The position numbers and the translations under genes were made by a program. Under the pieces are notes generated by a model that made no database searches, was not told where the DNA came from, and worked only from the letters and a program-made list of their open reading frames with translations. A stretch of DNA of 38,532 nt. Origin: a virus. Positions 1 through 38,532 of the stretch are shown here, one piece after another; the stretch's first letter is position 1; each line of letters opens with the position of its first letter. The stretch is taken from positions 1-38,532 of IMG/VR virus record IMGVR_UViG_3300028841_000391. The stretch is one strand, 5' to 3'.

Positions 1-141
1 CATTACAAATCTTTAGAAGCAGATCCAAAGATGGCTTGCCGAATCGACCGATTTCAATGTTGGAGATATGCGCGCGGCTAATGTTACATTTCTCGGCAAG
101 TTCTTGCGGCGACAAGTCTAACTGACACCGATATTTGGCTA
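1..141. repeat. Direct terminal repeat, copy 1 (identical to 38392-38532)
   Basis: The 141 nt CATTACAAATCTTTAGAAGC...CACCGATATTTGGCTA read identically at both window ends. The repeat lies inside a reading frame that is complete only when the ends are joined. Confidence 0.97.
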
Positions 142-202
142 TGTTATAACCAATTGTACCCTTCTTTCGTTTCACTTCAGGTTTTCTGAATTCGAATGGC
201 AC
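1..202 (-). CDS. XRE/Cro-CI family HTH regulator, N-terminal part (gene wraps to 38342-38391)
   Basis: My own translation: (V)PFEFRKPEVKRKKGTIGYNIAKYRCQLDLSPQELAEKCNISRAHISNIEIGRFGKPSLDLLLKICN... It carries the classic XRE HTH signature (QxxLAxxxxISxxxISxIExG). GTG start at 202 preceded by AAAGGTGA; an internal GTG at 175 is an alternative start. Confidence 0.88.
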   Translation of the reverse strand, partial: MPFEFRKPEVKRKKGTIGYNIAKYRCQLDLSPQELAEKCNISRAHISNIEIGRFGKPSLDLLLKICN

Positions 203-217: not shown

Positions 218-246
218 ATACTATGACATACCAATAAGTTTGTCAA
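218..246 (-). promoter_or_regulatory. Candidate sigma70-type promoter for the XRE regulator operon
   Basis: On the minus strand: TTGACA (246-241), 17-nt spacer, TAGTAT (223-218). It lies about 15 nt upstream of the AAAGGTGA RBS and the GTG at 202. Confidence 0.5.
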
Positions 247-257
247 ACAAACTTATT
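233..257. promoter_or_regulatory. Perfect 10-bp-arm palindromic operator AATAAGTTTG-TCAAA-CAAACTTATT
   Basis: The arms at 233-242 and 248-257 are exact reverse complements. It sits between the divergent XRE gene and the rightward early unit, and covers both candidate -35 hexamers. Confidence 0.8.
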
Positions 258-267
258 GCGACACAAT
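240..267 (+). promoter_or_regulatory. Candidate rightward early promoter, sharing its -35 region back-to-back with the XRE promoter
   Basis: TTGTCA (240-245), 16-nt spacer, CACAAT (262-267). The hexamers are weaker than in the other four copies. Confidence 0.35.
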
Positions 268-336: not shown

Positions 337-394
337 GGCCCTTCCCCCTTGGCCATGACAGTCACAGAAACAGAAACGGATAGGGGAAAGGGCC
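337..394 (+). other. Long-range stem enclosing a gene-less copy of the conserved early leader
   Basis: GGCCCTTCCCC (337-347) pairs with GGGGAAAGGGCC (383-394) for 11 bp with one bulge. The loop contains ACAGAAACAGAAACGGA (364-380). GGCCATGAC is directly repeated at 351-359 and 391-399. Confidence 0.4.
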
Positions 395-434
395 ATGACG
401 TAGGCTGGGCTCGAGCCAGCATCCTCAAGGTGCA

Positions 435-710: not shown

Positions 711-1781
711 ATGTCTATCAAAGCCATGTCCCATGTGTGGGAAGTAACAAATCTGAACACGTACGAGAAATTTGTCCTGCTGGCTCTCGCCGATTACTGC
801 AACCACAACCTGGTGGCATGGCCGAGCGTGCAAACGTTGGCTGAGAAAGTCCGGATGTCTAAAAATGGCGTCCGCAACATTTTGGAGAGACTTGTTGCGA
901 TGGGCGCGCTGGAAGTCAAGCATCGAAAACAAAAAAATGGTCTCAATCGCTCCTCTTTGTACAGAATCGTTCTCTCTGCGTTGTCCACAATGCCACCAGA
1001 TATCGACGGAACCCCAGGTGAAATCGAAGACGATAGCGACGACGATCTTTTTGAAAGTGACACCAAAGATGGGGGTAGTGCATCCGGTGCACCACCCATC
1101 ACACAGGGGGTAGTGCATCCGGTGAGCAAGGTAGTGCACCCCGTGCACCCAGATCCGGTCATTGAACCGGGTATACAAATAACTCTACAGGATCAACCAA
1201 CGTTAGCTGGCCCCCCAACCAATGTGGGTACCGCTGCATTTTTTGAAAAAGAGAACGAAGGGAATCTGAACACGCAACCCCAAGCACAACAGGATCCCAA
1301 ACAAACAGAGTTCAAAAGACACAACCTATATCGCGCCCTGGAGGCGCTACAGTCAACGCTAGCGGGTCACGTGGACTTTGAGCAGGGCGAACACAATGGA
1401 GGCCAACCTGGGCAAAATTGCGCCCTATTGGATCCGTCCCTGGAAACGATGTTCAAGGAAAAGATTGCCAGGTACGCAAGAGGTCGCAAAAAAGGTCTCA
1501 ACAACATCCTGGACGACATGAAGCAGCTTGGGGAGCAAGTCAAAAAAACCCAGCCCAAGGCAATAACCTTTCGCACTCTTCTGTGCGCTGGAAGCTTTGA
1601 AAAGTGTCTAGAGGCCATCCCCAACAACAAACCCCAGCAACCCAAAACACCCAGGCCGCTAGCTCATGGGCTTTGGGAACCCGCACCAAGGCCTGTGCTG
1701 ACCCCAGAAGAGCACGCCGCAAATCTGGCAATTTTAAATGAGCTGAGAACGAAACTGCAAACAAGGGAATTTGCGATATAA
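711..1781 (+). CDS. Replication initiator-like protein with N-terminal winged-helix (HTH_36-type) domain
   Basis: ATG at 711 with AAAGGTG 7 nt upstream. N-terminus: MSIKAMSHVWEVTNLNTYEKFVLLALADYCNHNLVAWPSVQTLAEKVRMSKNGVRNILERLVAMGALEV, the pattern of phage replication/primosome winged-helix proteins. An acidic linker and a basic C-terminal half follow, and iteron-like repeats lie inside the gene. Confidence 0.65.
   Translation: MSIKAMSHVWEVTNLNTYEKFVLLALADYCNHNLVAWPSVQTLAEKVRMSKNGVRNILERLVAMGALEVKHRKQKNGLNRSSLYRIVLSALSTMPPDIDGTPGEIEDDSDDDLFESDTKDGGSASGAPPITQGVVHPVSKVVHPVHPDPVIEPGIQITLQDQPTLAGPPTNVGTAAFFEKENEGNLNTQPQAQQDPKQTEFKRHNLYRALEALQSTLAGHVDFEQGEHNGGQPGQNCALLDPSLETMFKEKIARYARGRKKGLNNILDDMKQLGEQVKKTQPKAITFRTLLCAGSFEKCLEAIPNNKPQQPKTPRPLAHGLWEPAPRPVLTPEEHAANLAILNELRTKLQTREFAI
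1071..1146 (+). repeat. Iteron-like direct repeats inside the replication gene (candidate ori)
   Basis: GGGGGTAGTGCATCCGGTG occurs at 1071-1089 and again exactly at 1106-1124. A third degenerate copy, GGTAGTGCACCCCGTG, is at 1130-1145. The region encodes the VVHPV repeats of the linker. Confidence 0.55.
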
Positions 1782-1820
1782 ACCATTGACGCAAAACAAC
1801 TATATGGAGACAATGAGCAG

Positions 1821-1994
1821 ATGAGCCCCATCATACCAGCATTGGCAGTTTTTCTGATTGGCATCACCCTCCTCCTTGTCAAGTTATTTATTGACGGCCA
1901 GTTCTACATCGCATGCGCCCTGATTTGTGCGTTGGGACTGTTTGGAGTCATTGTTGCCGGAGGGATGCATGCAAAAAAAGAGAATCAACACTAA
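1821..1994 (+). CDS. 57-aa two-TM membrane protein (below the ORF-track cutoff)
   Basis: My own translation: MSPIIPALAVFLIGITLLLVKLFIDGQFYIACALICALGLFGVIVAGGMHAKKENQH. GGAGA lies 10 nt upstream. It has two hydrophobic helices and a charged tail. Confidence 0.55.
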   Translation: MSPIIPALAVFLIGITLLLVKLFIDGQFYIACALICALGLFGVIVAGGMHAKKENQH

Positions 1995-2004
1995 GCTCAT
2001 CAAC

Positions 2005-2400
2005 ATGCGAATGAAAAAAGCCATGCCATGGATGTACGAAACAAACATCAGGATATGGGAGCAAGACAATCTGCTTTGCGTGGCACTCAGAATCTTTGGG
2101 CATGGTGGCTGGTGTGGATATGTGGGCCTCAATGGGACAATCCCAAGCGAACAAGTAGACAGCATCAAGCTGCCTGACAAAAGGCCGGTGAGGATCATCT
2201 CTCTGCGTGAGGGGTGGCATCAGAACCCAGTGCTGAACTACGTGGGGCCTAATCACTGCTGGGTGGCGGTTGACTTTTGCCAGCAAGACGACGTGTACCC
2301 GCTGAACTTTTTGACAGAGAGAAAGAAGCCCGCCAGCTACAAAACCATTGAATACGTCATAAACACGGTAAACCAAATCGCAGAACAACTCCTTGCATAA
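2005..2400 (+). CDS. Hypothetical protein, short paralogue of 6633-7400 (CGYVG family)
   Basis: Trimmed from track ORF 1927-2400, whose 5' end overlaps the 1821-1994 gene. It shares GHGGWCGYVGL and WVAVDFCQQDD with the 6633-7400 product. The start is uncertain because no clear SD is present. Confidence 0.55.
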   Translation: MRMKKAMPWMYETNIRIWEQDNLLCVALRIFGHGGWCGYVGLNGTIPSEQVDSIKLPDKRPVRIISLREGWHQNPVLNYVGPNHCWVAVDFCQQDDVYPLNFLTERKKPASYKTIEYVINTVNQIAEQLLA

Positions 2401-2422
2401 AATCAGCGACGAACAAGGCACG

Positions 2423-2507
2423 AATAAGTTTTTTTGGTAAACTTTATATTGACAGAATAGTATTGTGTGGTAAACTTATTATTAGAAACAGAAACGGAGA
2501 CAACACC
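2423..2507 (+). promoter_or_regulatory. Early promoter/operator/leader copy A
   Basis: TTGACA (2449-2454), 16-nt spacer, TG-G-TAAACT extended -10 (2468-2476). Half-sites: AATAAGTTT (2423-2431), AAACTTTAT (2439-2447), AAACTTATT (2472-2480). Leader AGAAACAGAAACGGAGACAACACC at 2484-2507, directly before the ATG. Confidence 0.7.
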
Positions 2508-2825
2508 ATGGACTTCACACAACAAGCTCAAGAAATTCTCGGCAACAAAGCAACGGGTGTAATTCGCCACTTTCCAGTCGGCAGCATCGGCCACAAAGCC
2601 ATTACCATCATTCTCAACCTTGCGGGCAAAAAAGAAACAGGTAAAAAAGAATGGACGAAAGCCATCGAAATATGTGAAATCGCTAAAAAAGAAGTTTGGG
2701 AAGCCGATGCTTCAGAAAAATATTGCAGCGCATTAAGCGCGGCTGTCTACATCGCAGAGGCAGCAATTGAGTATGAAGTGATGCTAGAGCGCGCAGCCAA
2801 AATGGCAAAATGGGCAAATTCGTAA
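2508..2825 (+). CDS. Hypothetical helical protein, short member of paralogue family A
   Basis: ATG at 2508 follows the conserved leader (GGAGA 8 nt upstream). MDFTQQAQEILGNKATGVIRHFPVGSIGHKAITIILNL...KKEW... aligns with the N-proximal block and conserved Trp of 3553, 4859 and 7929. Confidence 0.7.
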   Translation: MDFTQQAQEILGNKATGVIRHFPVGSIGHKAITIILNLAGKKETGKKEWTKAIEICEIAKKEVWEADASEKYCSALSAAVYIAEAAIEYEVMLERAAKMAKWANS

Positions 2826-2835
2826 GGAGATAGCG

Positions 2836-3168
2836 ATGAATAGTCAAACATACATAAGAACACTCAACACAATGAACAAACAGCAACCAACCAGCGAAGA
2901 GAAATATCAGCTGCTTTGGTTTGCCATGATGGCTACCCAAGACCTGCCGGTGCGTTTCATTGGTCAATACATCATGGGCGGGGTGTTAGAGATTCGTTTT
3001 GCTGCATACAAGGTTTTGTTGCAAATCTCACCAGAAGACCAATCAATCGAAATGGTTCTTTTTCAAGATGGTGAATTTGTTGCACACCTCGAAAGAATTG
3101 AGCGGTATGACCATTTCGACAAGCTGCGCGAAATTTTGAAAATGTATTGCTGTGAGGAAGCGGCATGA
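2836..3168 (+). CDS. Hypothetical protein, paralogue family B (B1)
   Basis: RBS AAGGAGA. KYQLLWFAMMATQDLPVRFIGQY aligns with HYRLLRSVLMVTEKMPVRKIAQF of 4120-4497. Confidence 0.7.
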   Translation: MNSQTYIRTLNTMNKQQPTSEEKYQLLWFAMMATQDLPVRFIGQYIMGGVLEIRFAAYKVLLQISPEDQSIEMVLFQDGEFVAHLERIERYDHFDKLREILKMYCCEEAA

Positions 3169-3533
3169 CCATTCCACCACTCACAAACGAGCAGACAAAA
3201 GAGCTGGTCCAAGAAGTTTTTGGTGCGGAATTGTACGACATGAGAATGTCGGGCTTCAGCGAACATGCATGCAAAGAGGCATGGGTGATGGCGATGAGAG
3301 CAATCAACCCTCGCCTCCTCATCAAGGGAACGAGCTACGGAGCGCCTGCTGACGCACATGAGATCTTTCCGATTGCAGGTGCCCTCTTCCGCTCGATGTT
3401 GATTGGGCTCAACCCGGCCGTAAAATCCGCCGGGGAAACCCTGACGGCACTGGGCAAGCGAGAGTTGGCGGTCAGAGCGTATCGGTCTGCTGGCCGCCTT
3501 TTGCAAAAACAAAAAACCTCAAAAGCAGCATAA
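3165..3533 (+). CDS. Hypothetical protein
   Basis: ATGA start/stop overlap with the upstream gene; RBS GAGGAAG; 122-aa track ORF. No motif recognised. Confidence 0.65.
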   Translation: MTIPPLTNEQTKELVQEVFGAELYDMRMSGFSEHACKEAWVMAMRAINPRLLIKGTSYGAPADAHEIFPIAGALFRSMLIGLNPAVKSAGETLTALGKRELAVRAYRSAGRLLQKQKTSKAA

Positions 3534-3552
3534 AAATAAAACGGGAGGATAC

Positions 3553-4119
3553 ATGGACACCGCAGCAAAAACAGCCCTGCAAATTGAAAAAGCATGCCTA
3601 CATAAACTAATAGAGGTTGTTCCTGCTTCACGCCAGCGAATGTTTCTCATTACCCTCTTGGAGGATCCGAGCTATGGCGTTCTAAACGCAGTGAAGGGAG
3701 ATTCTCAATATTACAAGGTCGCTTCAGTGGCGCTCGCCGTACTTAGACACCCACCCTTTGACATGGACGGCATGAACTGGGTCAATGGCTCTGCGCAGCG
3801 GTTGTTACGCACTGAATTGCTGCGCAGCGATTTTCAGCTTAGAGAGAAAACTATCTACAGCCATGCAATGTCAACAGTTGTGTGGGTGGCAAAATGGGTT
3901 GCCATGGAGTTTGCGATTGGGATAGTCTCAGAATCAAGCGGTGAATGTTTGATGAATCCACAGAGAGAAGCGATTGAAAACGCCGCGAAACACGCCGCCA
4001 TTGCGCTTAGTGGTGGCGAGTGGCCAATCGAAATGAAATTTCACTACCAATGGATGTTTGAGACTTTGACAGAAATTCTTAGAAGTCCACAAGGTATTTC
4101 AGAGAAAGTTGAGAATTAG
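3553..4119 (+). CDS. Hypothetical helical protein, paralogue family A (A1)
   Basis: RBS GGGAGGA. Carries the family blocks RQRMFLITLLEDPSYGVL and C-terminal HYQWMFETLTEIL. Confidence 0.75.
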   Translation: MDTAAKTALQIEKACLHKLIEVVPASRQRMFLITLLEDPSYGVLNAVKGDSQYYKVASVALAVLRHPPFDMDGMNWVNGSAQRLLRTELLRSDFQLREKTIYSHAMSTVVWVAKWVAMEFAIGIVSESSGECLMNPQREAIENAAKHAAIALSGGEWPIEMKFHYQWMFETLTEILRSPQGISEKVEN

Positions 4120-4497
4120 ATGAGTAACGCCTACTACAAAACAGGAATCACCCAGCCAATCCTACGGAAAAAAAGACGCAGCAGCACCAAGATTCACTAC
4201 AGGCTGCTTCGTTCTGTTCTCATGGTTACTGAAAAGATGCCAGTGCGCAAAATAGCGCAATTTCTTCATGAAGAAGACAAATCTGTGGTGATTGTAGATT
4301 TTGGCACCTATGAAGCACGCTTGGCGTGCTCACTGGAGTCAAACTTGGGCACATGGGTCACCATCACGCCACTTGGTCAAAGCAAGGACGCCTTTGTGCA
4401 CCGCATGGGGTACGACCCCCTTGATGGAGACATGACCTTTGCACAGCGGCTGGAGTTGTACAATTTTCTCGCGCACTTCGCACGTTATTACGCATAG
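4120..4497 (+). CDS. Hypothetical protein, paralogue family B (B2)
   Basis: Starts directly after the upstream TAG. Carries the family B block HYRLLRSVLMVTEKMPVRKIAQF. Confidence 0.7.
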   Translation: MSNAYYKTGITQPILRKKRRSSTKIHYRLLRSVLMVTEKMPVRKIAQFLHEEDKSVVIVDFGTYEARLACSLESNLGTWVTITPLGQSKDAFVHRMGYDPLDGDMTFAQRLELYNFLAHFARYYA

Positions 4498-4505
4498 GAG
4501 GACAC

Positions 4506-4850
4506 ATGAGACATTACAGGTTGGTTCAGTTTGTTTGTATGTGTCTTACGGGCGTTCATGAAAGAAAAGAGAAGGACGAAGGCGAAACAAAAGAATATGT
4601 CCTTATGTACGTGCCCAGGGGAAATGAAGTCAATGACAAGAGCGCAGCAATATACATTTCAGAAGACATGACAATGGTCAGTGAAAAGTCTTTGAAAATA
4701 TTTGAGAAATATGGTCTGCTCTGGATTGCGCTTATTCATAACTCTCGGCCTATACAAATTAGGGGAATTGGCAGAGAAGGCTCTGAGCTATATAAGTACT
4801 TATGTTTGTACATAGATAACGATTGGCAACGCATTGGCGAGGAAAACTAA
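4506..4850 (+). CDS. Hypothetical protein, paralogue family B (B3, tandem duplicate of B2)
   Basis: RBS AGGAGGA. The N-terminus MRHYRLVQFVCMCLTGVHERK aligns with B2. A second B-like block, YGLLWIALIHNSRPIQIRGIG, lies near the C-terminus. Confidence 0.65.
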   Translation: MRHYRLVQFVCMCLTGVHERKEKDEGETKEYVLMYVPRGNEVNDKSAAIYISEDMTMVSEKSLKIFEKYGLLWIALIHNSRPIQIRGIGREGSELYKYLCLYIDNDWQRIGEEN

Positions 4851-4858
4851 GGAGAATC

Positions 4859-5332
4859 ATGCAACCCGCGAAAACGAAAAAGTCAATCAAAAGGCGGCGC
4901 AGAGACATGGAAACACTTTTGCAGAACGCATCGAGAAAACACATCAGTCGGGTGTTCCTGCTGCTCCTGGATGATCAGATGTATGGCATCACCCACTTCA
5001 TCAACGGCAGCTCGCCAATACTGTCGCACATCATCCTGTTGCTTGAAAACCAAAAAACTTGTCAGAAGGAGTGGATGCATGCCAGAAATGCGGTCATGCG
5101 CGAAGTCGCCGACATGTCTATTATTGCGGCATCGGTTCTCTGGCTGGTTGCAAACGCCATGATGTACCCTGACGTCACCGACACGCTGCCCCTGGTTCGA
5201 CAAGAGGCCAATCGAGCCATTTCCATTGCATCGACGTTTTGCAACAGCAGGCAAGAATGCCTGTCCTATCGAAGGTGGATAAACGATGCAGTGGTTGAAA
5301 TCACAACAGAAGCAACAGGAAAAACAGAATGA
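4859..5332 (+). CDS. Hypothetical helical protein, paralogue family A (A2)
   Basis: ATG at 4859 with AAGGAGAA upstream (the track ORF begins earlier, at 4823). Carries ISRVFLLLLDDQMYGIT, KEW and C-terminal SYRRWINDAVVEI. Confidence 0.72.
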   Translation: MQPAKTKKSIKRRRRDMETLLQNASRKHISRVFLLLLDDQMYGITHFINGSSPILSHIILLLENQKTCQKEWMHARNAVMREVADMSIIAASVLWLVANAMMYPDVTDTLPLVRQEANRAISIASTFCNSRQECLSYRRWINDAVVEITTEATGKTE

Positions 5333-6141
5333 ACACAACATGTTTTGACTTGAAAAAAATCAACACCTTAACCAAGTACCCAAGCATACCGACCTACCAC
5401 CAGATGGCTGACAGAGGGATGCTCGCAGATGTGCCTCTAGAGATTCCAGAAGGCCCTCTTTATCTGTCTGAGAAGATAGATGGCACCAATGCCAGAATCA
5501 TTGAGTTTGTCAATCCCGATGAAAGAGACTGGCCGAAAGAGCGCGCTTGGCTCATTGGGTCTCGTGAAGAGCTTCTACATGCCAAGGGCGACCTCATTCC
5601 TAGCAATGATCAAGGAATTGTGGAGGCCTTGGAAGCAACGGCTGAATCACTCTCGGTCCTACTAAAAACTCACGCTCCAGGAATAGTGGTTTACTACGGA
5701 GAGGTATATGGAAGTAAAATAGGCGCGGCGTGCAAAAATTACACCCAAAAAGGTTCTTCAGGGTTTAGGTTGTTTGACGTTGCCGCGTACTCGTATGAAG
5801 TGTTCGCAAAGATCTTGGAGATGCCTATCGAGAAAATTGCTTCATGGCGGGAACAAAACCTGCAACCATGGCTGCCTACTAAATTCATAAGCACAGCTCC
5901 AGGGTGCCCCCCCATCATGCGGGTCCCCACATGGCAAATAGAGGCCCCCGATTCTACCATGCCAAAAACCCCACAAGCCACCTTAAAATGGCTGGCGCAG
6001 TTTCCAACGGACACGAAATGCGCGTTGGACGGCCAGCCAGGAATGGCAGAAGGATACGTTCTCAGAAATGAAAACAGGTCCTTCATCGCAAAGCTTCGCT
6101 TTGAAGACTACACACGTACCTTGACAAAGCGGTTGGCATAA
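5329..6141 (+). CDS. ATP-dependent RNA ligase, Rnl2-like adenylyltransferase domain
   Basis: Covalent nucleotidyltransferase motifs occur in order: I SEKIDGTN (Lys codon at 5473-5475), Ia IGSRE, III VYYGEVYG, IIIa FRLFDV, IV AEGYVLR, V IAKLRFEDY. ATGA overlap with the upstream gene. Confidence 0.75.
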   Translation: MNTTCFDLKKINTLTKYPSIPTYHQMADRGMLADVPLEIPEGPLYLSEKIDGTNARIIEFVNPDERDWPKERAWLIGSREELLHAKGDLIPSNDQGIVEALEATAESLSVLLKTHAPGIVVYYGEVYGSKIGAACKNYTQKGSSGFRLFDVAAYSYEVFAKILEMPIEKIASWREQNLQPWLPTKFISTAPGCPPIMRVPTWQIEAPDSTMPKTPQATLKWLAQFPTDTKCALDGQPGMAEGYVLRNENRSFIAKLRFEDYTRTLTKRLA

Positions 6142-6142
6142 A

Positions 6143-6643
6143 ATGGAAACAAAGCAACAAGAAACAATAGATGGCCTAACAGTGTCAGACATTTCAATTC
6201 GCCACGATAAAGTCAAGGAACTACAAGAAGCCTTCAACAAAGCAGGCATCAGAGTCACGCATGGAGAAGCGTTTGTTTTGTTGCGTATTCAGCTGATCAA
6301 CCGGGTGGATATTTCTCTGCATGAACGCGTGCCAAATTTGGATGGGGATTTGAATTTGCGCATCGATGTGGTCAAACCCCAATGGGCGAAACAAATGGTG
6401 ATGGAAATAATACAAGCAGGCCAAGAAATGGGAAAAGCGCCCCCACGGGATCCACCTGCCCGAAATGGCGAATCCGCCTTGCTTAAGTTGGCGGAAATTG
6501 GACGTTTGTACCCATCGGATCCAGACATGCCAACCGATGGGGCCGCAAATGTAGACCACTATCTGTATGGTGCGCCAAAACAGGAAAGTACAGTCACATG
6601 CCTAACAACAACACTGAGGAATGGAGGAAAGAATGGAGAATGA
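6143..6643 (+). CDS. Hypothetical protein
   Basis: 166-aa track ORF, 1 nt after the ligase stop. It overlaps the next gene by 11 nt. No motif recognised. Confidence 0.6.
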   Translation: METKQQETIDGLTVSDISIRHDKVKELQEAFNKAGIRVTHGEAFVLLRIQLINRVDISLHERVPNLDGDLNLRIDVVKPQWAKQMVMEIIQAGQEMGKAPPRDPPARNGESALLKLAEIGRLYPSDPDMPTDGAANVDHYLYGAPKQESTVTCLTTTLRNGGKNGE

Positions 6644-7400
6644 AGCCAGCAGCGAAAAGGGTGAAAAATGGTTGAAAAATTATTTGAAAGAAAGAATTTC
6701 CGAAGGTCCCTGGAGCGCCGAACCAGACAGGCAGGAATGGAAGTACAAAGGGTTCCCGTGCCTGATTGTGCGCAATCACATGGGTGTGCTTTGCGGATAC
6801 GTTGGGGTTCCGAGTAACCACCCGTATTATCAAATGAATTATGAAGAGATTCCCTTAGAGGTGCATGGAGGACTTACGTACTCACAGCATTGTCGCGAGA
6901 ACATCTGTCACAAGCCGGCAGAGGGCGAGCCAGATGATGTGTGGTGGCTTGGTTTTGATTGTGGGCACTACGGAGACCTCATCCCCTGCTATAAGGACCT
7001 TAACCCGGACTTCGAATATCGTGACATGAACTACGTAAAGGCAGAGGTGGAAGGGCTTGCGGACCAGTTGCACGAGGCAATGAACCCATCAGAATCTCAA
7101 GAGGAAGCCGTTGATTGCAGCACCTCGCAAAGCACATCAAACGACAGCATCATTCGTAAAAGAATGGAGACTGCAATCAGCCTCCATAATGTCCTCTCTG
7201 AGAGAGGTGTTCTAGTTTCGCGGATGGATATTGATACATTGCTCGACTTGGCCATAAAAAACAAACTTCACATCATACTCCACAAACGGGAAGACCTACG
7301 AAGCACCATAGATTATGTTGATTCAACAGGGCATCTTTGCCACTTTGTCAACGAACCTGGGTGGGTGCACATTCCTAAAGATGCAAAGGAGCATTCATGA
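6633..7400 (+). CDS. Hypothetical protein, long member of the CGYVG family (His/Cys/Asp-rich core)
   Basis: ATG at 6633 behind GGAGGAAAGA. Core sequence: VRNHMGVLCGYVGVP...EVHGGLTYSQHC...DDVWWLGFDCGHYGDLIP. C-terminal helical extension. Confidence 0.7.
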   Translation: MENEASSEKGEKWLKNYLKERISEGPWSAEPDRQEWKYKGFPCLIVRNHMGVLCGYVGVPSNHPYYQMNYEEIPLEVHGGLTYSQHCRENICHKPAEGEPDDVWWLGFDCGHYGDLIPCYKDLNPDFEYRDMNYVKAEVEGLADQLHEAMNPSESQEEAVDCSTSQSTSNDSIIRKRMETAISLHNVLSERGVLVSRMDIDTLLDLAIKNKLHIILHKREDLRSTIDYVDSTGHLCHFVNEPGWVHIPKDAKEHS

Positions 7401-7885
7401 GTGAACCATGGACTGAATGGTACGAACGCGCCGAAAAAATTAAAGACAGTGAAGAACTTATGAATTTAGCCAATGATATGATGTGGAGCTTGTTTTTCAG
7501 TGCCAAGTCAAGCAATGAATTGAGCAGCTATGACCACATTTATGATTCATATGCTGAAGGGGCAGCTGCTTTGTTGCTGGCGGCCGGAAATCTCATGTCT
7601 GACAAATTAGGCCTAACAGGGTTCCAAGCAAGTTTTGCATTTTGGAGATTTGCACAACGGTGGCTGCCCATCGATGGACCTGCGGGACTGCTGAAACTGG
7701 AAGATATGCTGTATCCTCAATACAAATACAAGTTTACTGCCATCTCGCTAGATGACTGGAACTGGTTGCAAGCGGAAGCACAAAAGAGACTGAATGAGCG
7801 CGAAGGTATGCATGCGGACGTTAGAGCACACATGACCAGCATCGTTGAGGGTCATGTGCCATTTGGGTTCAAAGTTTTGCATTGA
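7397..7885 (+). CDS. Hypothetical protein
   Basis: ATGA overlap with the upstream gene; RBS AAGGAG; 162 aa. Its stop codon lies inside the TTGACA of promoter copy B. Confidence 0.7.
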   Translation: MSEPWTEWYERAEKIKDSEELMNLANDMMWSLFFSAKSSNELSSYDHIYDSYAEGAAALLLAAGNLMSDKLGLTGFQASFAFWRFAQRWLPIDGPAGLLKLEDMLYPQYKYKFTAISLDDWNWLQAEAQKRLNEREGMHADVRAHMTSIVEGHVPFGFKVLH

Positions 7886-7914
7886 CAACAATAGTATTAT
7901 GTGGCAAACTTATT
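7881..7914 (+). promoter_or_regulatory. Early promoter/operator copy B (34 bp identical to 10415-10448)
   Basis: ATTGACAACAATAGTATTATGTGGCAAACTTATT. TTGACA at 7882-7887, 17-nt spacer, TG-G-CAAACT at 7902-7910, half-site AAACTTATT at 7906-7914. GGAGGAG and an ATG at 7929 follow. Confidence 0.7.
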
Positions 7915-7928
7915 CATGTGGAGGAGCA

Positions 7929-8456
7929 ATGTTGAAAACCAGCAGGAAGGCGGATTTTCTTATCACGGTGTTGCGAGAAACTGACCTTACAGAAGAATGC
8001 AAGAGACGTTTCTTCATCGCAATCCTTAGCGATGAAACCCACGGTGTGCTTAGGCTCACTCAACCGGGCTCTGTGCAGCATGATGCCGTATTCAACGTCA
8101 TTGCTCTTCTCAAAGACAACTGCAACGACCCAAAGGTTTGGCGGGATGCAGAGGCTTCTGCATCAGCAGCAGCAGGGGTAGCAATATCGGTAGCTACAAG
8201 TGCCGCAGAAATGGCAGCAGGGGCAGCGGCACGGGCAGCTGCAAGTGCTGCAGCAGGGTCTTTAGGGGCGGCAGCATGGGCGGCCTCAGGGCACGTAGCA
8301 GCAACAGAGACAGTAGCAGCAGCAGAAGAGGCATGGGTAGCTTCAGGGCACGCAGCAGCAGAAGAGGTATGGATGGCAGCAGCAGAATACGCAGCAGAAG
8401 TACACTACTCATGGATGACTGTCACCTTCGAGCAATTGCTAAGGGAGACAAAATGA
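7929..8456 (+). CDS. Hypothetical Ala/Trp-rich helical protein, paralogue family A (A3)
   Basis: ATG at 7929 behind GGAGGAG. Carries KRRFFIAILSDETHGVL, KVW and C-terminal HYSWMTVTFEQLL. The central Ala-rich tract has an internal duplication: AWAASGHVAA..EE / AWVASGHAAAEE. Confidence 0.75.
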   Translation: MLKTSRKADFLITVLRETDLTEECKRRFFIAILSDETHGVLRLTQPGSVQHDAVFNVIALLKDNCNDPKVWRDAEASASAAAGVAISVATSAAEMAAGAAARAAASAAAGSLGAAAWAASGHVAATETVAAAEEAWVASGHAAAEEVWMAAAEYAAEVHYSWMTVTFEQLLRETK

Positions 8457-8950
8457 CCAGCTTCGAAGAAAGCAAAACAGTCGACCTTTTTCAGTTGGTG
8501 CGCAAGTTCATGGAAGAACTTCCGTTAGACATAGAAAAAGTAGAGATAGAACGCAAAGTAAATGAGAATGCTGCAACCATAACCCTACGCGTGCAGACAC
8601 CTGATAGCGATGTGGCTGCGCCCAGCCCTGCAAAGCCACTATGTGCATCTGCTTTGACAAGCATCAATGTGCAGAAGAACACGCCTCTTGGGAAAGTCTT
8701 CTGCTTAGCAACACCTAAAGTTCTGAGGCAGCTTCGTGTTTGGCCCAAATGCGGATCGTCGCTGATTACGGAACCAGACGCTTGGCCCAAAATGCTTAAG
8801 CCTTCTCCATTGAAAACTCTCGTTGTTTCGTTAACGAAAGATTTGGTCAGCCATGCAAGAACTGAAACACAAGAAGAAAAAGAAGAATTCTTTGAGCTGT
8901 TTAAAAAAATGAGAGAAAAAGTGAGAGAAATGAAAAAGGAGGAACAATGA
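8453..8950 (+). CDS. Hypothetical protein
   Basis: ATGA overlap at 8453. MTSFEESKTVDLFQLVRKF... with a Lys/Glu-rich C-terminus. The part of track ORF 8138-8950 upstream of 8453 is an alternative frame of the Ala tract. Confidence 0.6.
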   Translation: MTSFEESKTVDLFQLVRKFMEELPLDIEKVEIERKVNENAATITLRVQTPDSDVAAPSPAKPLCASALTSINVQKNTPLGKVFCLATPKVLRQLRVWPKCGSSLITEPDAWPKMLKPSPLKTLVVSLTKDLVSHARTETQEEKEEFFELFKKMREKVREMKKEEQ

Positions 8951-9153
8951 AAAAGTTTGCTACCCTACTAGCGGCCGTTGTCGTTGTCAAATTAAAACTG
9001 ATTGGTATGTCAAATTACTTGCCCATTGGTGAGGAGGCCAAGCAGGTACTGAAGGACACGCAAGGGCTTTGGGCCTGCGACCAAGGCACCACACCGGTTC
9101 TGGTGTTGCAGGATGGCGGTCTGTTTGTGGAATGCAAGAAGAAACAACCTTAG
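8947..9153 (+). CDS. Small protein with signal-peptide-like N-terminus (MKKFATLLAAV...)
   Basis: RBS AGGAGGA; ATGA overlap with the upstream gene. The N-terminus is nearly identical to that of 9604-9786. Confidence 0.6.
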   Translation: MKKFATLLAAVVVVKLKLIGMSNYLPIGEEAKQVLKDTQGLWACDQGTTPVLVLQDGGLFVECKKKQP

Positions 9154-9161
9154 GAAAGAGC

Positions 9162-9590
9162 ATGGAGACTCAAATCAAAATAAGCAACGCAATCAATGTA
9201 TCTGTTGCACGAAATCAAACTGAAGGCTTTGGGCCATTTTCATGCAAAGTGACATGTCTCATAAGTACTGAAGAAGCGGAAGCAATTTTTAAGCAAATAC
9301 CAAAAGAAGGATGCGGAGAGTTGTTTTTAAAGGTTTCCATACTTTCTATAGAATCTGGAGATTTTACGGGTCAAAAAATGTTCTTTCAAGCGTGGATTGC
9401 AGGGTTAAGGTCGGTCGGCAATGATGCAGAAATCACGTTCATAGGATATCCGAATTGGGTCAATGCGCAAAAGGCTCGCTCTGAGGCACTCGAAGACAGC
9501 ATCAGATTTTCCATGCAAACAGATAGGGAATCGTTTGAAAAAATCGAAATGGACATGAAAAGAAATTGGTTCTTACAAAATCCTACATAA
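9162..9590 (+). CDS. Hypothetical protein
   Basis: ATG at 9162 (METQIKISNAINV...), 142 aa. The upstream extension of the track ORF overlaps the preceding gene. Confidence 0.6.
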   Translation: METQIKISNAINVSVARNQTEGFGPFSCKVTCLISTEEAEAIFKQIPKEGCGELFLKVSILSIESGDFTGQKMFFQAWIAGLRSVGNDAEITFIGYPNWVNAQKARSEALEDSIRFSMQTDRESFEKIEMDMKRNWFLQNPT

Positions 9591-9603
9591 AGAAGGAGGC
9601 AGC

Positions 9604-9786
9604 ATGAAAAAGTTTGTTACCCTGTTGGCGGCAGTGACTATCATGGCAATCAGTTCTTTTGTTCAAGAACAGTACACCTCCCTATCGAATTTGGCAGGCT
9701 ACTGCCTATCTGGAGGCCGCCTCTTATTGTTAATAATGATGTTAATAAAAAAAACGACAAGCGTTCAAAAATACTCGCGTAAATAA
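9604..9786 (+). CDS. Small membrane/secreted protein (MKKFVTLLAAV...)
   Basis: RBS GAAGGAGG. Has a hydrophobic N-terminus and a second hydrophobic stretch, GRLLLLIMMLI. Confidence 0.5.
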   Translation: MKKFVTLLAAVTIMAISSFVQEQYTSLSNLAGYCLSGGRLLLLIMMLIKKTTSVQKYSRK

Positions 9787-9825
9787 AGTTGACCTCTTCT
9801 GAAATTTTGTGATATTTCACTCTTA

Positions 9826-10053
9826 ATGTCAATTGATCCAATTCAAGCGGTCAATGAGCTGCGTAAGCAGCGGTTGGCGGCTGTTGTAAGGACGTGTGAC
9901 TACTACCGCGGCAACAGCGTATGCAAGCAACCAGCGGTGTATTGGATTGACGGAAGGGTTGATTACCATGTGTGCAAGGAGCATGTACACAATCGAATCA
10001 CCTTGAAACCGTCGGTCATCAAAAAAATCACCCTCCCCTCTTCTGAAGACTGA
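9826..10053 (+). CDS. Small Cys/His-containing protein (possible zinc-binding)
   Basis: 75-aa track ORF containing C-x8-C ... HVCKEHVH. Its 3' end overlaps the convergent gene 10028-10360 by 26 nt. Confidence 0.45.
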   Translation: MSIDPIQAVNELRKQRLAAVVRTCDYYRGNSVCKQPAVYWIDGRVDYHVCKEHVHNRITLKPSVIKKITLPSSED

Positions 10054-10360
10054 TTTGCTCCATCTTTTTGATTTCCACAGAAAGCTCACGAATGGACTGC
10101 TCGAGCTTGCCGACAACGCTCATGGTGTCTTTCATGGTGGTTTTGAAAGTGTCTGACTGGTCTTTGATGATTTTTGCCTGATCTTCCCTGAACTTATTGT
10201 GAGTGTCTAGCATGGAGTGGATGCGGTCCTCTGTCATCTCATCGTGCTTGGGTAGGTAGTAGAAAAACAGAAATCCCATTGTCAGCAAGGCAACAAACGT
10301 AGGGAACCCCAGTCTCTCCACAAAATGAGCCAATTTCTGGCTGAATCTTTCTGACCTCAT
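10028..10360 (-). CDS. Bitopic membrane protein with coiled-coil ectodomain, paralogue of 38044-38328
   Basis: 110 aa: a short N-terminal tail, LGFPTFVALLTMGFLFFYYL as the TM, then a charged helical region. It shares the (R/K)LGFP-TM arrangement with 38044-38328. Confidence 0.65.
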   Translation of the reverse strand: MRSERFSQKLAHFVERLGFPTFVALLTMGFLFFYYLPKHDEMTEDRIHSMLDTHNKFREDQAKIIKDQSDTFKTTMKDTMSVVGKLEQSIRELSVEIKKMEQISLQKRGG

Positions 10361-10414
10361 CTTATTAAAAAGATAGCAGAATGTGAGAAAAATGAAAATA
10401 GTTAATCAGACACT

Positions 10415-10474
10415 ATTGACAACAATAGTATTATGTGGCAAACTTATTATAGAAACAGAGACGGAGACAACACC
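10415..10474 (+). promoter_or_regulatory. Early promoter/operator/leader copy C
   Basis: TTGACA at 10416-10421, 17-nt spacer, TG-G-CAAACT at 10436-10444, AAACTTATT at 10440-10448, leader AGAAACAGAGACGGAGACAACACC at 10451-10474. A divergent TTGTCA-N16-TATTTT on the minus strand shares the -35 core. Confidence 0.7.
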
Positions 10475-10666
10475 ATGACAAAGACAAACATCCAACACAA
10501 CCTCCAAAACGCAGCCCTGAACACCATGAGCGCCGAAGAGATGGAATTGCTGAACATCGCAACTGCCGAAATGTACTCCAACAGCGCTTTTGACCACAGC
10601 TGGGTGGATGCATATACCTGGGTGGGCGAATACGTCTTGATCAATGGCCAACTAGTCCACGCATAA
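10475..10666 (+). CDS. Small acidic protein, first gene of the recombination unit
   Basis: ATG at 10475 directly after the conserved leader. 63 aa: MTKTNIQHNLQNAALNTMSAEEMELLNIATAEMY... Confidence 0.6.
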   Translation: MTKTNIQHNLQNAALNTMSAEEMELLNIATAEMYSNSAFDHSWVDAYTWVGEYVLINGQLVHA

Positions 10667-10686
10667 CGAATTGAGGAGCAAGGAGA

Positions 10687-11313
10687 ATGGACATGCAAAA
10701 GAAAAGCCTGGCGGAAAAAATGATATCTGTGATGAAAGAATGCAGCTACATCGAAAAGGATGGCACCAACTCTTTCCACAAGTACAAATACGTCTCTTCA
10801 AATGCCGTTCTACAGAAAGTGAACGACGCCCTTGTAAACCACCGCGTGGCTTCTTTCACACGCACCAGAATCATCTCTGCTGAGGTGGCTACCACCAACA
10901 AAGGCGCGCAAGAGAAGTTTGTGACAGCCGAAGCCATCATCACACTGGTGAACGCAGACGCTTCAGAAGACAAAATGGAGATTTCCGCGATTGGCAGCGG
11001 GCAGGACGCCGGAGACAAAGCCGTAGCCAAGGCCCAGACAATGGCCATAAAATATGCCTGGACCATGACATTGAACATCTCAACGGGTGACGACCCAGAG
11101 AAAGACGAACAAACAGACCGCTCGACAAGCGCCGCGCAGAGCTTCGCTGATGAGTACGAACAAGTCTATACCAAGGAACAATACCAAAATCTTGTTGACA
11201 AAACCAAACGATTCATCTCCTCCTTTTCCGCAGCAGAGGCTACATTGCTTCGAAACGCCGCGCAGCGGGCCCAGGCCAGAATTGCGCCGCCCAAAGAGAA
11301 AGGAATGATGTAG
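10687..11313 (+). CDS. erf: ERF-family single-strand annealing protein
   Basis: SFHKYKYVSSNAVLQKVNDAL ... GSGQDAGDKAVAKAQTMAIKYAWTMTLNISTGDDPEKDE matches the ERF core pattern (KYKY...; GDKA-x-KA-x-T-x-A-x-KY...; DDPE.D). GAGGAG/AAGGAGA lies upstream. ATG at 10693 is an alternative start. Confidence 0.78.
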   Translation: MDMQKKSLAEKMISVMKECSYIEKDGTNSFHKYKYVSSNAVLQKVNDALVNHRVASFTRTRIISAEVATTNKGAQEKFVTAEAIITLVNADASEDKMEISAIGSGQDAGDKAVAKAQTMAIKYAWTMTLNISTGDDPEKDEQTDRSTSAAQSFADEYEQVYTKEQYQNLVDKTKRFISSFSAAEATLLRNAAQRAQARIAPPKEKGMM

Positions 11314-11314
11314 C

Positions 11315-11866
11315 ATGTCGAAAGTAAATATCATTGATCTTAGTTACATACCATGGTCTGAAGAGTTTCTAAAAACGGCCACCAAGGTAAGTCAGGCATT
11401 AAAATTTGACAAAGGACACATTTACTCCATCCGGAGTGCCCTCAATCGTTTTTGTATGGAAGCGCACCCAGATGAAATCTTCGACGCGCAGGCCTTTCGA
11501 AGGCACTTGGAAATCATTCGAGACCGCATCCAAGACAAGCTTCGGCAGGAGAACTCCCCCACCCTGAAGGTCATGAAGGCATATACACAGTGGAGCAAGC
11601 TAAATGCGATGTTTGGCCACATTGACGCAGCGCTTGAGACCATTGCACAACCACCCATCGCAAAAACAATCAAAATGGAGTCTGGAGAAACATTTGACGC
11701 CGACCCAGATGATTTTATACATCTTGAAGGCAACAAATGCTGGATCAACTTGGGACAAAACCGCGCCATGACTATCACGTTGCCAAGCCTTCCGCTGAAA
11801 GAGTGCGAAATGGCAAAGGCTTTGATGGCGTTTGTGCGCGTCATTCGCAAAACGGGAGAAAAATAA
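11315..11866 (+). CDS. Hypothetical protein
   Basis: 183-aa track ORF starting 1 nt after the erf stop. No motif recognised. Confidence 0.6.
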   Translation: MSKVNIIDLSYIPWSEEFLKTATKVSQALKFDKGHIYSIRSALNRFCMEAHPDEIFDAQAFRRHLEIIRDRIQDKLRQENSPTLKVMKAYTQWSKLNAMFGHIDAALETIAQPPIAKTIKMESGETFDADPDDFIHLEGNKCWINLGQNRAMTITLPSLPLKECEMAKALMAFVRVIRKTGEK

Positions 11867-11867
11867 A

Positions 11868-12512
11868 ATGACGTATCGCCTTTGTTACATCGATTCGCAT
11901 GCCGGCCCCATCAAGCGGGCGTATTTCACAAACCTGGAGCCATTTACCGAGCAGACCGGCGATGATTGGGAGGATGCTCAGTACTGGTTAAATGCCAGCC
12001 CCCCGTATGACAGCGGCGACAACCTGAAAATCGTCGTATTTGAATCACAACTCCTTGACCCACACGATTACCCCAAAAATCTTTCTATGTCCGTCGACCA
12101 GATAAACGACAAGCAAGTGCCTTGGCTCATCAACGGAGACTCTCAAGAGCCAGACAAACAAATTTACGCGGGTTGTCCGCTTGAGAAATTCAAATGTGAC
12201 ATCTGGGCGGCAGGTGGAACAATCTTTGAACCAAAAAGTTCCCCGGCAGGATATTCGACGAAAGAAACCGTTGAGCTTCATATTGCTCAACACACTGGTT
12301 TTGTGTTGAGCGATGACCCAGATGAGCCCAACGTGTTTTTTGGTCATCCAGATAGCACAAAATCGTTGCTGTGTTGGTATTTGTATACACTGCCACACAG
12401 GCTGCCCACTGTTTTTGCAAAAATGAGGTCGTTTGTTGAAGAAAATAAGGAAAAACTGCGCGAAGAAATGGGAAAACATCCCGGGTTGATTAAATTCAAG
12501 GTGAAAGCATGA
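11868..12512 (+). CDS. Hypothetical protein
   Basis: ATG at 11868 (MTYRLCYIDSHAGPIKRAYFTNLEPFTEQTGDDWEDAQYWLNASPPYD...), with GGGAGA 10 nt upstream. The upstream part of the track ORF overlaps the previous gene. Confidence 0.6.
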   Translation: MTYRLCYIDSHAGPIKRAYFTNLEPFTEQTGDDWEDAQYWLNASPPYDSGDNLKIVVFESQLLDPHDYPKNLSMSVDQINDKQVPWLINGDSQEPDKQIYAGCPLEKFKCDIWAAGGTIFEPKSSPAGYSTKETVELHIAQHTGFVLSDDPDEPNVFFGHPDSTKSLLCWYLYTLPHRLPTVFAKMRSFVEENKEKLREEMGKHPGLIKFKVKA

Positions 12513-12847
12513 ATGGCACCAAGGTACTCTCTACAGTTCTTGAGCGCAAGCAAGAGGCAATGAACAAGACGGAAAAAGAGTATCATTTCCACTTGCTCGC
12601 TCTTCAACTTGCTGGAAAGATTGTTCGGTATGACTTTGAGCCAGAGCGCTTGAGGCTTGCCAACAACACCTTTTACAGCCCTGACTTTCGGGTGATTTTT
12701 CCCGATGGTAGTGTTGAGTTTCACGAAGTAAAAGGCTACTGGCGTGACGACGCACGGGTGAAAATCAAAGTAGCTGCCGAGCTACATCCTTATCGATTTC
12801 GCGCTGTGCAAAAAGCGAAAACCGGCTGGCACTACGAAGATTTTTAA
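12509..12847 (+). CDS. DUF1064-like PD-(D/E)xK nuclease (Holliday-junction-resolvase-like)
   Basis: KTEKEYHFHLLALQLAGKIVRYDFEPERLRL...YSPDFRVIFPDGSVEFHEVKGYWRDDARVKIKVAAELHP carries the D...E-x-K core and the overall DUF1064 pattern. ATGA overlap with the upstream gene. Confidence 0.7.
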   Translation: MNGTKVLSTVLERKQEAMNKTEKEYHFHLLALQLAGKIVRYDFEPERLRLANNTFYSPDFRVIFPDGSVEFHEVKGYWRDDARVKIKVAAELHPYRFRAVQKAKTGWHYEDF

Positions 12848-37404: not shown

Positions 37405-37414
37405 ACCATATCAC

Positions 37415-37447
37415 GTGAATCTTGAAAGAAACAAGTGAAAGATTCAC
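37415..37447. promoter_or_regulatory. Inverted repeat GTGAATCTT-N15-AAGATTCAC in front of the late operon
   Basis: 9-bp perfect arms at 37415-37423 and 37439-37447, 10 nt upstream of the endolysin ATG. No good -35 hexamer is nearby. Confidence 0.5.
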
Positions 37448-37459
37448 CACAAAAGTATG

Positions 37460-37518
37460 TTGACATAAACTTATTTGTATCATACAATAAGGGTACAGAA
37501 ACAGGAGTGGAAACAACC
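37460..37518 (+). promoter_or_regulatory. Early promoter/operator/leader copy D
   Basis: TTGACA (37460-37465), 17-nt spacer, TACAAT (37483-37488). AAACTTATT (37467-37475) lies in the spacer, with partner AATAAG at 37486-37491. Leader ACAGAAACAGGAGTGGAAACAACC at 37495-37518. Confidence 0.7.
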
Positions 37519-37650
37519 ATGACAGAACATTTTCCTACTAACATTGAAAATATGGAGGGCCTTGTGGCAATACTTTTATTTGCACTCGTTTACATTTTGG
37601 TACTGATTCCACTGTCGATGAAGCTATCGCTCAAAAAGGTGTTTTCTTGA
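37519..37650 (+). CDS. 43-aa single-TM peptide
   Basis: My own translation: MTEHFPTNIENMEGLVAILLFALVYILVLIPLSMKLSLKKVFS. The ATG follows the conserved leader. The track ORF begins earlier, at 37435. Confidence 0.5.
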   Translation: MTEHFPTNIENMEGLVAILLFALVYILVLIPLSMKLSLKKVFS

Positions 37651-37789
37651 GCTCTGCGATGGCATCCTGATACTTGCCAACCGCGTCTCGAAACTCTTTG
37701 AGCGTTTCCTCTGGAATGAAAAGCTTACCAAACCCAGCTCGCTCAAGAATGAGCAAGAACTCGCGAATCAAGGCATCAACGGTTGTCAT
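37631..37789 (-). CDS. 52-aa helical protein (below the ORF-track cutoff)
   Basis: My own translation: MTTVDALIREFLLILERAGFGKLFIPEETLKEFRDAVGKYQDAIAELKKTPF. GGGGG lies 6 nt upstream. It overlaps the upstream gene by 14 nt and the convergent 37519-37650 gene by 20 nt. Confidence 0.45.
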   Translation of the reverse strand: MTTVDALIREFLLILERAGFGKLFIPEETLKEFRDAVGKYQDAIAELKKTPF

Positions 37790-38042: not shown

Positions 38043-38043
38043 G

Positions 38044-38341: not shown

Positions 38342-38532
38342 TCACACTTCTATAACTCCTTCAAGAAGTTCAGACAGCGTACAACCAAGGGCATTACAAA
38401 TCTTTAGAAGCAGATCCAAAGATGGCTTGCCGAATCGACCGATTTCAATGTTGGAGATATGCGCGCGGCTAATGTTACATTTCTCGGCAAGTTCTTGCGG
38501 CGACAAGTCTAACTGACACCGATATTTGGCTA
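38342..38532 (-). CDS. XRE/Cro-CI family HTH regulator, C-terminal part (5' end lies across the junction at 1-202)
   Basis: The frame continues ...LLKICNALGCTLSELLEGVIEV, with the TGA stop at 38344-38342. The joined length is 252 nt, giving 83 aa. It is a single-domain protein with no peptidase or dimerisation extension. Confidence 0.88.
   Translation of the reverse strand, partial: AKYRCQLDLSPQELAEKCNISRAHISNIEIGRFGKPSLDLLLKICNALGCTLSELLEGVIEV
38392..38532. repeat. Direct terminal repeat, copy 2 (identical to 1-141)
   Basis: Same 141 nt as the left end. This is either a circular-assembly overlap or a genuine terminal redundancy. Confidence 0.97.

Follow-up and report, generated by a model that had tools for sequence, protein, structure and literature searches.

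A recurring dyad half-site on predicted sigma-70-type promoters of an orphan phage, with an XRE protein as candidate repressor

The stretch at positions 10,415 to 10,474 contains a promoter-like element that recurs, in recognizable form, elsewhere in the DNA analyzed here (the window; 38,532 nucleotides). The original prediction described five copies of a promoter, operator and leader element sharing one 9-bp half-site, through which a single regulator, most simply an 83-aa XRE protein, would gate all early units. This raises the question of whether the shared half-site is a protein-binding site in its own right or a piece of promoter, and, if it is a binding site, which protein binds it and how the copies arose.

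A half-site confined to intergenic DNA

We found that the window holds a complete circular phage genome (38391 bp) whose ends overlap by 141 bp, bases 38392-38532 being a repeat of 1-141. The plus-strand early/replication arm (approximately 711 to 12847) encodes a replication initiator with an HTH_36 domain, an RNA-ligase-like protein and an ERF recombinase, and the minus-strand arm (37404 down to approximately 12858) encodes an NlpC/P60 lysin, a terminase, a Mu-type portal, a protease and baseplate proteins. No tRNA genes were found in the window. The XRE gene straddles the circular junction (complement of 38342..38391 joined to 1..202) and its product is 83 aa long:

XRE gene, 5' part: 1..202, minus strand, N-terminal 67 codons with a GTG start at 202-200
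XRE gene, 3' part: 38342..38391, minus strand, C-terminal end and stop codon, reached across the circular junction

The phage genome had no nucleotide matches among cultured phages. Its portal is at most 26% identical to that of any cultured phage, and its terminase at most 54% identical to that of any viral, metagenomic or genomic contig. The XRE and replication proteins each match themselves alone among 5.8 billion proteins. In IMG/VR, neither the RNA ligase nor the replication protein had a relative and the 25-bp dyad described below had no copy, and pattern scans for the leader and the operator -10 returned only single chance matches, mostly within coding sequence. Nor was the 9-mer enriched in the flanks of terminase relatives from viral, metagenome and genome collections. 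On these comparisons the phage is an orphan lineage without cultured relatives.

The 9-mer AAACTTATT or its complement occurs at 233 (-), 249 (+), 2423 (-), 2472 (+), 7906 (+), 10440 (+) and 37467 (+) and nowhere else. These seven occurrences compare with 0.34 expected, and none of 100 shuffles reached seven. All of them lie in intergenic DNA (approximately 1.1 kb, 2.9% of the genome). The 9-mer proved to be one half of a 25-bp dyad, AATAAGTTTG-N5-CAAACTTATT. The coordinates of the original prediction were all correct, among them the perfect palindrome at 233-257, the identical 34-mers at 7881-7914 and 10415-10448, and the variant at 2448-2480, which is 1 nt shorter. Its count of five copies holds for regions (A to E) but not for 25-bp dyads, which number six since region B holds a tandem pair (B1 and B2, 33 bp apart):

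Operator A: 233-257, AATAAGTTTG-TCAAA-CAAACTTATT, a perfect dyad (0/20 mismatches)
Operator B1: 2423-2447, AATAAGTTTT-TTTGG-TAAACTTTAT, 4/20 mismatches, upstream of the -35 box
Operator B2: 2456-2480, AATAGTATTG-TGTGG-TAAACTTATT, 4/20 mismatches, over the promoter spacer and -10
Operator C: 7890-7914, AATAGTATTA-TGTGG-CAAACTTATT, 4/20 mismatches
Operator D: 10424-10448, AATAGTATTA-TGTGG-CAAACTTATT, 4/20 mismatches
Site E: 37451-37475, AAAAGTATGT-TGACA-TAAACTTATT, 7/20 mismatches, only the half at 37466-37475 intact, its spacer being the -35 box

A genome-wide dyad scan returned five sites at 4/20 mismatches or fewer, compared to approximately 0.3 expected at 5 mismatches or fewer. Site E stands as a copy in that its right half is intact and in register with the 34-mer (74% identity), but not as a full dyad, its 7/20 mismatches being at chance level. 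Spacers and second halves drift between the 25-bp sites, but a perfect 9-mer is present at least once in each. Since the copies share descent and C equals D exactly, the seven 9-mers amount to about five independent observations. We rejected a candidate sixth region at 8995-9017, which resembles the flank of the XRE promoter; it is coding sequence with 8/20 dyad mismatches and is either a chance resemblance or a decayed copy. Three GGTAGTGCAYCCSGTG repeats lie within the replication initiator's own gene and are likely targets of that initiator.

An independent Logan assembly of run SRR10823753 contains the genome as two contigs of 35883 bp and 2560 bp. The compared stretches are identical to the window, and the contig ends lie inside both 34-mers. 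Because the sequence is identical and breaks within both 34-mers, the 34-bp repeat is no assembly artefact.

Predicted promoters at the dyads

We scored promoters as sigma-70-type when a TTGACA-like -35 and a TATAAT-like -10 (A at position 2, T at position 6) lay 16-18 bp apart; scores out of 12 give the match to the sigma-70-type consensus. In the scanned regions, the highest-scoring promoters fall on the sites, namely B (10/12 with an extended TG), the minus strand of A (10/12) and E (11/12, the TTGACA-N17-TACAAT promoter already proposed at 37460-37488). The promoter features are as follows:

P_xre: 218..246, minus strand, TTGACA (246-241)-N17-TAGTAT (223-218), 10/12, pointing into the XRE gene
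Rightward promoter candidate: 240..267, plus strand, TTGTCA-N16-CACAAT, 9/12, with a putative function as a start
P_B: 2449..2476, plus strand, TTGACA-N16-TAAACT, 10/12, extended TG
Element C: 7881..7914, plus strand, -35 at 7882-7887, operator at 7890-7914, putative TGg-CAAACT extended -10 at 7902-7910
Element D: 10415..10448, plus strand, -35 at 10416-10421, operator at 10424-10448, -10 at 10439-10444
P_E: 37460..37488, plus strand, TTGACA-N17-TACAAT, 11/12

The C and D elements have a perfect -35 and an extended TG; their -10, CAAACT, agrees at 3/6 positions and they fall below the scan threshold. Since the scan did not call them and their -10 is only a 3/6 match, the promoters at C and D are assigned by reading the sequence. 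At A, the two -35 boxes overlap at the exact dyad centre (240-245 on the plus strand and 241-246 for P_xre), and the rightward candidate faces a 508-nt gene-free region followed by the replication gene.

The dyad stands in one of three positions with respect to the polymerase contacts. The spacer TGTGG of B2, C and D gives the extended TG, and the right half of these sites, YAAACT, forms the -10 hexamer. At A and E the -35 coincides with the operator spacer, and the B1 dyad lies upstream of the -35. This variable placement is our main argument for a protein-binding site in its own right, as opposed to a sub-element of the promoter. The elements would accordingly combine promoter and operator, as originally proposed, with half-site dyads placed on apparent sigma-70-type promoters in five of the seven intergenic gaps of at least 30 nt. 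That they tie together the whole early arm was an overstatement, as promoter-like sites in two further early gaps (1786 and 9789) lack the motif.

One may instead suppose that the copies are only duplicated strong promoters without a dedicated repressor, the 9-mer being kept as -10 and discriminator in B2, C and D and by common descent, and palindrome A being a by-product of overlapping divergent -35 boxes. The coincidence of YAAACT with the -10 hexamer in B2, C and D fits this supposition, as do the register of the copies over 34 nt, the exact identity of C and D, and the overlap of TTGACA and TGTCAA at the centre of A. Part of the half-site conservation in B2, C and D may indeed reflect promoter function alone, since there the half-site coincides with the -10. 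However, A and E have the 9-mer next to the -35, and B1 sits upstream of the -35 without a promoter role. Overlapping -35 boxes account for the central 7 bp of A only, not for its 10+10 symmetric flanks, and a perfect 9-mer persists at every site despite the drift of spacers and second halves. We therefore regard plain duplicated promoters as an unlikely explanation.

A second reading in terms of promoters alone takes AATAAGTTTG as a Bacteroidota-type -7 box, TAnnTTTG, such that A holds two divergent boxes and D and E fire leftward. In its favor, TAAGTTTG fits TAnnTTTG at A in both orientations and at C and D on the minus strand, the minus-strand copies at B2 and E reading TAAGTTTA, one base short of TAnnTTTG, and minus-strand genes do begin left of D and E (10360 and 37404). 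However, no minus-strand genes lie left of B2 or C. TTGACA stands at canonical spacing in all five regions, with a plus-strand gene directly behind B, C, D and E. Furthermore, ribosome-binding motifs precede 34 of the 56 genes (61%) compared to an 11% background, which indicates that the host uses Shine-Dalgarno sites and fits a host with sigma-70-type promoters. Frequent Shine-Dalgarno motifs are unlike Bacteroidota, and we rejected the TAnnTTTG reading, which we consider very improbable, on this 61% usage.

Leaders and the copied cassette

The original prediction also noted a conserved CA-rich leader ending at the ATG behind three of the promoters, and a gene-less relic of it. Both observations hold:

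Leader B: 2484..2507, plus strand, AGAAACAGAAACGGAGACAACACC, ending at the ATG of a 105-aa gene (2508-2825)
Leader D: 10451..10474, plus strand, ending at the ATG of a 63-aa gene (10475-10666)
Leader E: 37495..37518, plus strand, ending at the ATG of a 43-aa membrane-peptide gene (37519-37650)
Leader C: downstream of 7881..7914, plus strand, short and different (GGAGGAG), followed by a gene at 7929-8456
Leader relic: 364..403, plus strand, ACAGAAACAGAAACGGA and then ATG-ACG-TAG, with no gene behind it

A single one of the 24 positions distinguishes leaders B and D, and leader E is approximately 75% alike. Within the relic, AGAAACAGAAACGGA at 366-380 is an exact 15-nt copy of 2484-2498; a decayed gene behind it was considered and rejected, as we found no protein similarity in 250-720. 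The leaders are nearly U-free and carry GGAG approximately 8 nt ahead of the ATG. Since the promoters as assigned put transcription starts near 2484, 10451 and 37495, the conserved 24 nt would make up the whole predicted 5'UTR. The 63-aa protein behind D was checked for a Cro-like fold, and its single-sequence AlphaFold2 model, with a pLDDT of 64, is uninformative.

Such conservation could mark an RNA-level control site, targeted by a translational repressor or a chaperone (of an Hfq-type A-R-N, CsrA-type GGA or RegA-like kind), or a DNA hexamer repeat, RGARAC x3. Leaders B and D are 23/24 identical though their promoters differ more and their genes are unrelated, the relic persists without a gene, and AGA-AAC-AGA-AAC in an almost U-free leader fits the A-R-N pattern. 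Against this, the leaders fold no better than shuffled sequence (z -1.4 to +0.4), and the start regions behind them come 6th, 9th and 21st when 56 genes are ordered from the least structured, good but unexceptional ranks. Rfam returned no matches over the window at the gathering threshold and none over 200-760 at E up to 1, and we found no complementary RNA partner for the leader in the genome. Leader C differs from leader D despite identical promoters, and recent copying or gene conversion explains the leader identity without a function. These data do not bear out the suggestion that the leader is a translational enhancer or RNA-level control site, and we find a dedicated leader signal doubtful.

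B and D are homologous over approximately 63 nt, -35 to ATG, with two 1-nt indels, and not beyond. Block duplication, as originally proposed for promoter, leader and first gene together, is thus upheld for promoter and leader, copied as a cassette, but not for the first gene, because the genes behind B and D have no similarity. This indicates that a promoter-operator(-leader) cassette has spread, rather than a promoter with its gene. The genes behind B and C are weak paralogues, and sites B and C have no leader in common. C equals D in the promoter, and B is like D in the leader; this mosaic pattern suggests gene conversion or recombination among the copies. Between the 34-bp direct repeats lies a 2.5-kb segment, recovered in the Logan assembly as a contig of its own.

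A candidate repressor and its place among known systems

We found that the XRE protein is a single HTH_3/Cro-C1 domain (PF01381, E = 2.1e-15; PF13443, E = 1.7e-11) that also matches PHROG repressor families 3, 4 and 8; its N-terminal arm, KRKK, is basic. Its nearest solved relatives are the small dimeric regulators SinR, ClgR, CylR2, DdrOC and C.BclI. Among approximately 40 proteins scanned, no further classical sequence-specific regulator was recognised, and the one remaining HTH domain belongs to the replication initiator. The perfect dyad A lies over the -35 of the XRE gene's own promoter, and the dyads overlap promoter elements, the regulator's own included, as in a Cro/CI-type layout. XRE as the binder of the dyads is the most economical link, a circumstantial one drawn from adjacency and from the habit of the family. 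Many XRE operators are shorter than 25 bp.

A distant relative with a 47% identical terminase (L006) has an HTH_3 gene in the same position as XRE and carries an 18-nt AT-rich element of its own in three intergenic places, including one immediately ahead of that gene. By analogy, this layout lends weak support to the link between XRE and the dyads.

The dyads might alternatively be bound by another protein, either a host regulator (LexA-like or a global repressor) or a phage early protein, with the targets of XRE elsewhere. The link to XRE is one of adjacency only, and among the more than 20 early proteins without a family assignment there may be another that binds DNA. At the core of A, TTTG-N5-CAAA is similar to some types of LexA box, which provides a lead; however, only site A matches it. 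The perfect site sits on XRE's own promoter, the usual place for an autoregulated phage repressor, and XRE is the only HTH_3 protein present. We consider another binder a minor possibility.

We think it reasonably likely, reading from sequence, that the elements are early promoters of the sigma-70 type used by host RNA polymerase, interlocked with dyad operators and repressed by an XRE dimer. The sequence itself establishes the motif statistics and positions, the dyad symmetry, the promoter matches, the HTH_3 domain and where the cassette ends; we infer where transcription begins, that XRE is the binder, and that it represses and does not activate. In this mechanism, an XRE dimer on the dyads would exclude RNA polymerase by steric occlusion. 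At A, with one dyad over two back-to-back -35 boxes, the XRE gene and the rightward start would be repressed jointly. The bound dyads at B2, C and D would block the spacer and extended -10. At B, the position of B1 33 bp upstream (approximately three helical turns) would allow cooperative binding around the -35, and at E, a half-site abutting the -35 would give the weakest control. The graded match (A perfect, B-D at 4/20, E a half-site) predicts graded occupancy. Such repression may serve immunity or a timed shut-off of early genes. The promoter-operator-leader cassette of approximately 63 nt was copied, or gene-converted, ahead of unrelated genes.

This is an ordinary phage gene-control layout of the classical repressor-operator type, with no new principle, and it leaves the understanding of phage regulation unchanged. 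It does provide a compact regulatory map for an orphan lineage, with one candidate repressor, six candidate operators and five promoter regions. A repressible promoter set could be made from its short, clearly delimited parts, which are the 25-bp dyad, the perfect -35 followed by an extended -10, and the unstructured leader of 24 nt.

PeSL cassettes of T4-type phages join a strong sigma-70-like early promoter to a terminator stem-loop and have no operator (PMC2839356, PMC4122927). Like PeSLs, the elements described here are short repeated cassettes with sigma-70-like early promoters before unrelated small genes without an assigned function, and their repeats, judging from the 34-bp direct repeats around the 2.5-kb segment, could mediate module shuffling. 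We found no terminator-like hairpin next to B, C, D or E, which sets them apart from PeSLs. It is rather improbable that the unit of approximately 63 nt is a recombinogenic, operator-bearing PeSL-like cassette, with 7915-10448 forming a mini-circle and A gating the whole genome. If true, such a cassette would put newly acquired genes under one repressor in a small non-T4 phage, and the 2.5-kb segment 7915-10448 would be able to leave as a mini-circle by way of its flanking 34-bp direct repeats. With no predicted terminator separating the late genes from the XRE operon, dyad A might gate early and late genes alike.

L5-type stoperators are asymmetric 13-mers bound by a monomeric two-domain repressor of 183 aa (HTH plus stoperator domain), and they number more than 20 sites, many without a promoter, that act on elongation (PMC9283540, PMC6550527). 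As with stoperators, one short intergenic motif here links many transcription units to one repressor, in this case a candidate, and the intact half-site is oriented with transcription at all four plus-strand promoters. The sites here are not L5-type stoperators, being dyads on promoters, and XRE has an HTH_3 domain only.

The conserved inverted repeats of Streptomyces phage phiC31 and the operators of Bacillus phage phi105 are cases in which one repressor serves many dispersed sites in the early region. The sequences, repressor families and hosts are unrelated to those discussed here, and the present set has six sites, each built into a host-type promoter. The likeness lies in copies of one site placed across the early arm at repeated, very similar early promoters.

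At OR and OL of lambda, P22 and 434, a small HTH repressor gene lies at divergent promoters, and dyad operators that overlap the -35 or -10 recur at early promoters. Unlike lambdoid CI, the 83-aa, one-domain XRE protein has neither a C-terminal oligomerisation (dimerisation) domain nor an S24-type self-cleaving domain. No integrase, transposase, partition family or other lysogeny gene was recognised among the approximately 40 proteins scanned, several of which have no family assignment, and XRE does not fit a CI-type immunity repressor of a temperate phage. Unlike the lambdoid switch, the locus has no facing Cro-like gene and its rightward side opens with 508 nt of non-coding DNA. There are five regions here compared to two in lambdoid phages, and one dyad over two overlapping -35 boxes takes the place of three tandem operators. 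The system nevertheless resembles the lambdoid Cro/CI switches in its dyads on promoters, its recurring operator, its graded matches and the putative control of the regulator's own promoter.

Promoter-like sites and a reversed gene in the early arm

Two intergenic gaps in the plus-strand early arm (approximately 711-12847) are left without an operator, and each contains a promoter-like site:

1786-1814, TTGACG-N17-GACAAT
9789-9816, TTGACC-N16-GATATT with a TG

These operator-free sites suggest that the shared site would not govern every early start, contrary to the original prediction of one regulator gating all early units. We found that a minus-strand match, TTGTCA-N16-TATTTT, adjoins the operator of element D (10415-10448), which suggests that D may be bidirectional, like operator A, the perfect 25-bp dyad at 233-257. 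Immediately to the left of D, within this plus-strand arm, lies a minus-strand gene (10028-10360) that was also called by an independent gene caller and is a weak paralogue of the gene at 38044-38328.

Element D is a 34-mer identical to element C (7881-7914), and the 2.5-kb segment between the two (7885-10444) was recovered as a contig of its own, 2560 bp long, in Logan's independent assembly of run SRR10823753. A 35.8-kb deletion form together with a mini-circle would likewise be compatible with the assembly graph.

Paralogues and repeats

Distant internal paralogues are abundant across the early arm from 2005 to 9786:

g2508 and g7929
g2836 with g4120 and g4506
g2005 and g6621
g8947 and g9604

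The last pair also has a common 49-nt repeat (at 8930 and 9587, 80% identical) that spans the ribosome-binding site and the start. Within the coding sequence of a 68-aa signal-peptide gene, AAACTGATTGGTATGTCAAATTA at 8995-9017 shares 87% identity with the minus-strand flank (219-241) of P_xre, the predicted promoter of the XRE gene, which encodes an 83-aa HTH_3 protein; scored as a dyad, it has 8 mismatches in 20 positions. Degenerate, GCAGCAG-rich 45-nt direct repeats occupy 8169-8402, towards the 3' end of gene 7929-8456, where they overlap a long alternative-frame ORF (8138-8950).

A distant relative, L006, whose terminase is 47% identical, contains a small HTH_3 gene (3596-3874) positioned as in the window. 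In L006, three intergenic sites carry an AT-rich 18-nt element of the relative's own, AAAAAGATTATATTTGTT; one of these sites precedes the HTH_3 gene and another the lysin gene:

2242-2273, L006, region with the element
3576-3593, L006, region with the element
5251-5298, L006, region with the element

Genes and signals between XRE and the late genes

Downstream of XRE, 37405-38391 contains three small minus-strand genes:

38044-38328, minus strand, membrane-anchored coiled-coil protein
37776-38042, minus strand, lipoprotein-like protein
37631-37789, minus strand, 52-aa protein

Judged by their sequences, the products of the first two look spanin-like. The predicted plus-strand promoter P_E (37460-37488) is directed convergently into this three-gene unit, and thus read-through and promoter interference are possible. 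No terminator was predicted ahead of the late operon. An inverted repeat, GTGAATCTT-N15-AAGATTCAC, lies at 37415-37447 between P_E and the first late gene (lysin, minus strand, start 37404), and could be a site for a late-gene regulator; no leftward sigma-70-like promoter was evident there.

Genome ends, gene-free stretch and replication gene

The first 141 bp of the window (1-141) are identical to the last (38392-38532), which indicates that the genome is circular or terminally redundant, with a length of 38391 bp. The junction of the ends falls within the XRE gene. Operator A is separated from the replication gene by a gene-free stretch of 508 nt (203-710), whose folding is more stable than that of shuffled sequence (z = -2.97) and which gave no match in an Rfam search. 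This stretch contains a gene-less relic of the leader, several strong hairpins, and a direct repeat, GGCCATGAC, at 351 and 391. The replication-initiator gene that follows (711-1781) carries three copies of the direct repeat GGTAGTGCAYCCSGTG, at 1074, 1109, and 1130 (span 1074-1145). By analogy with lambda O, these repeats are probably origin iterons.
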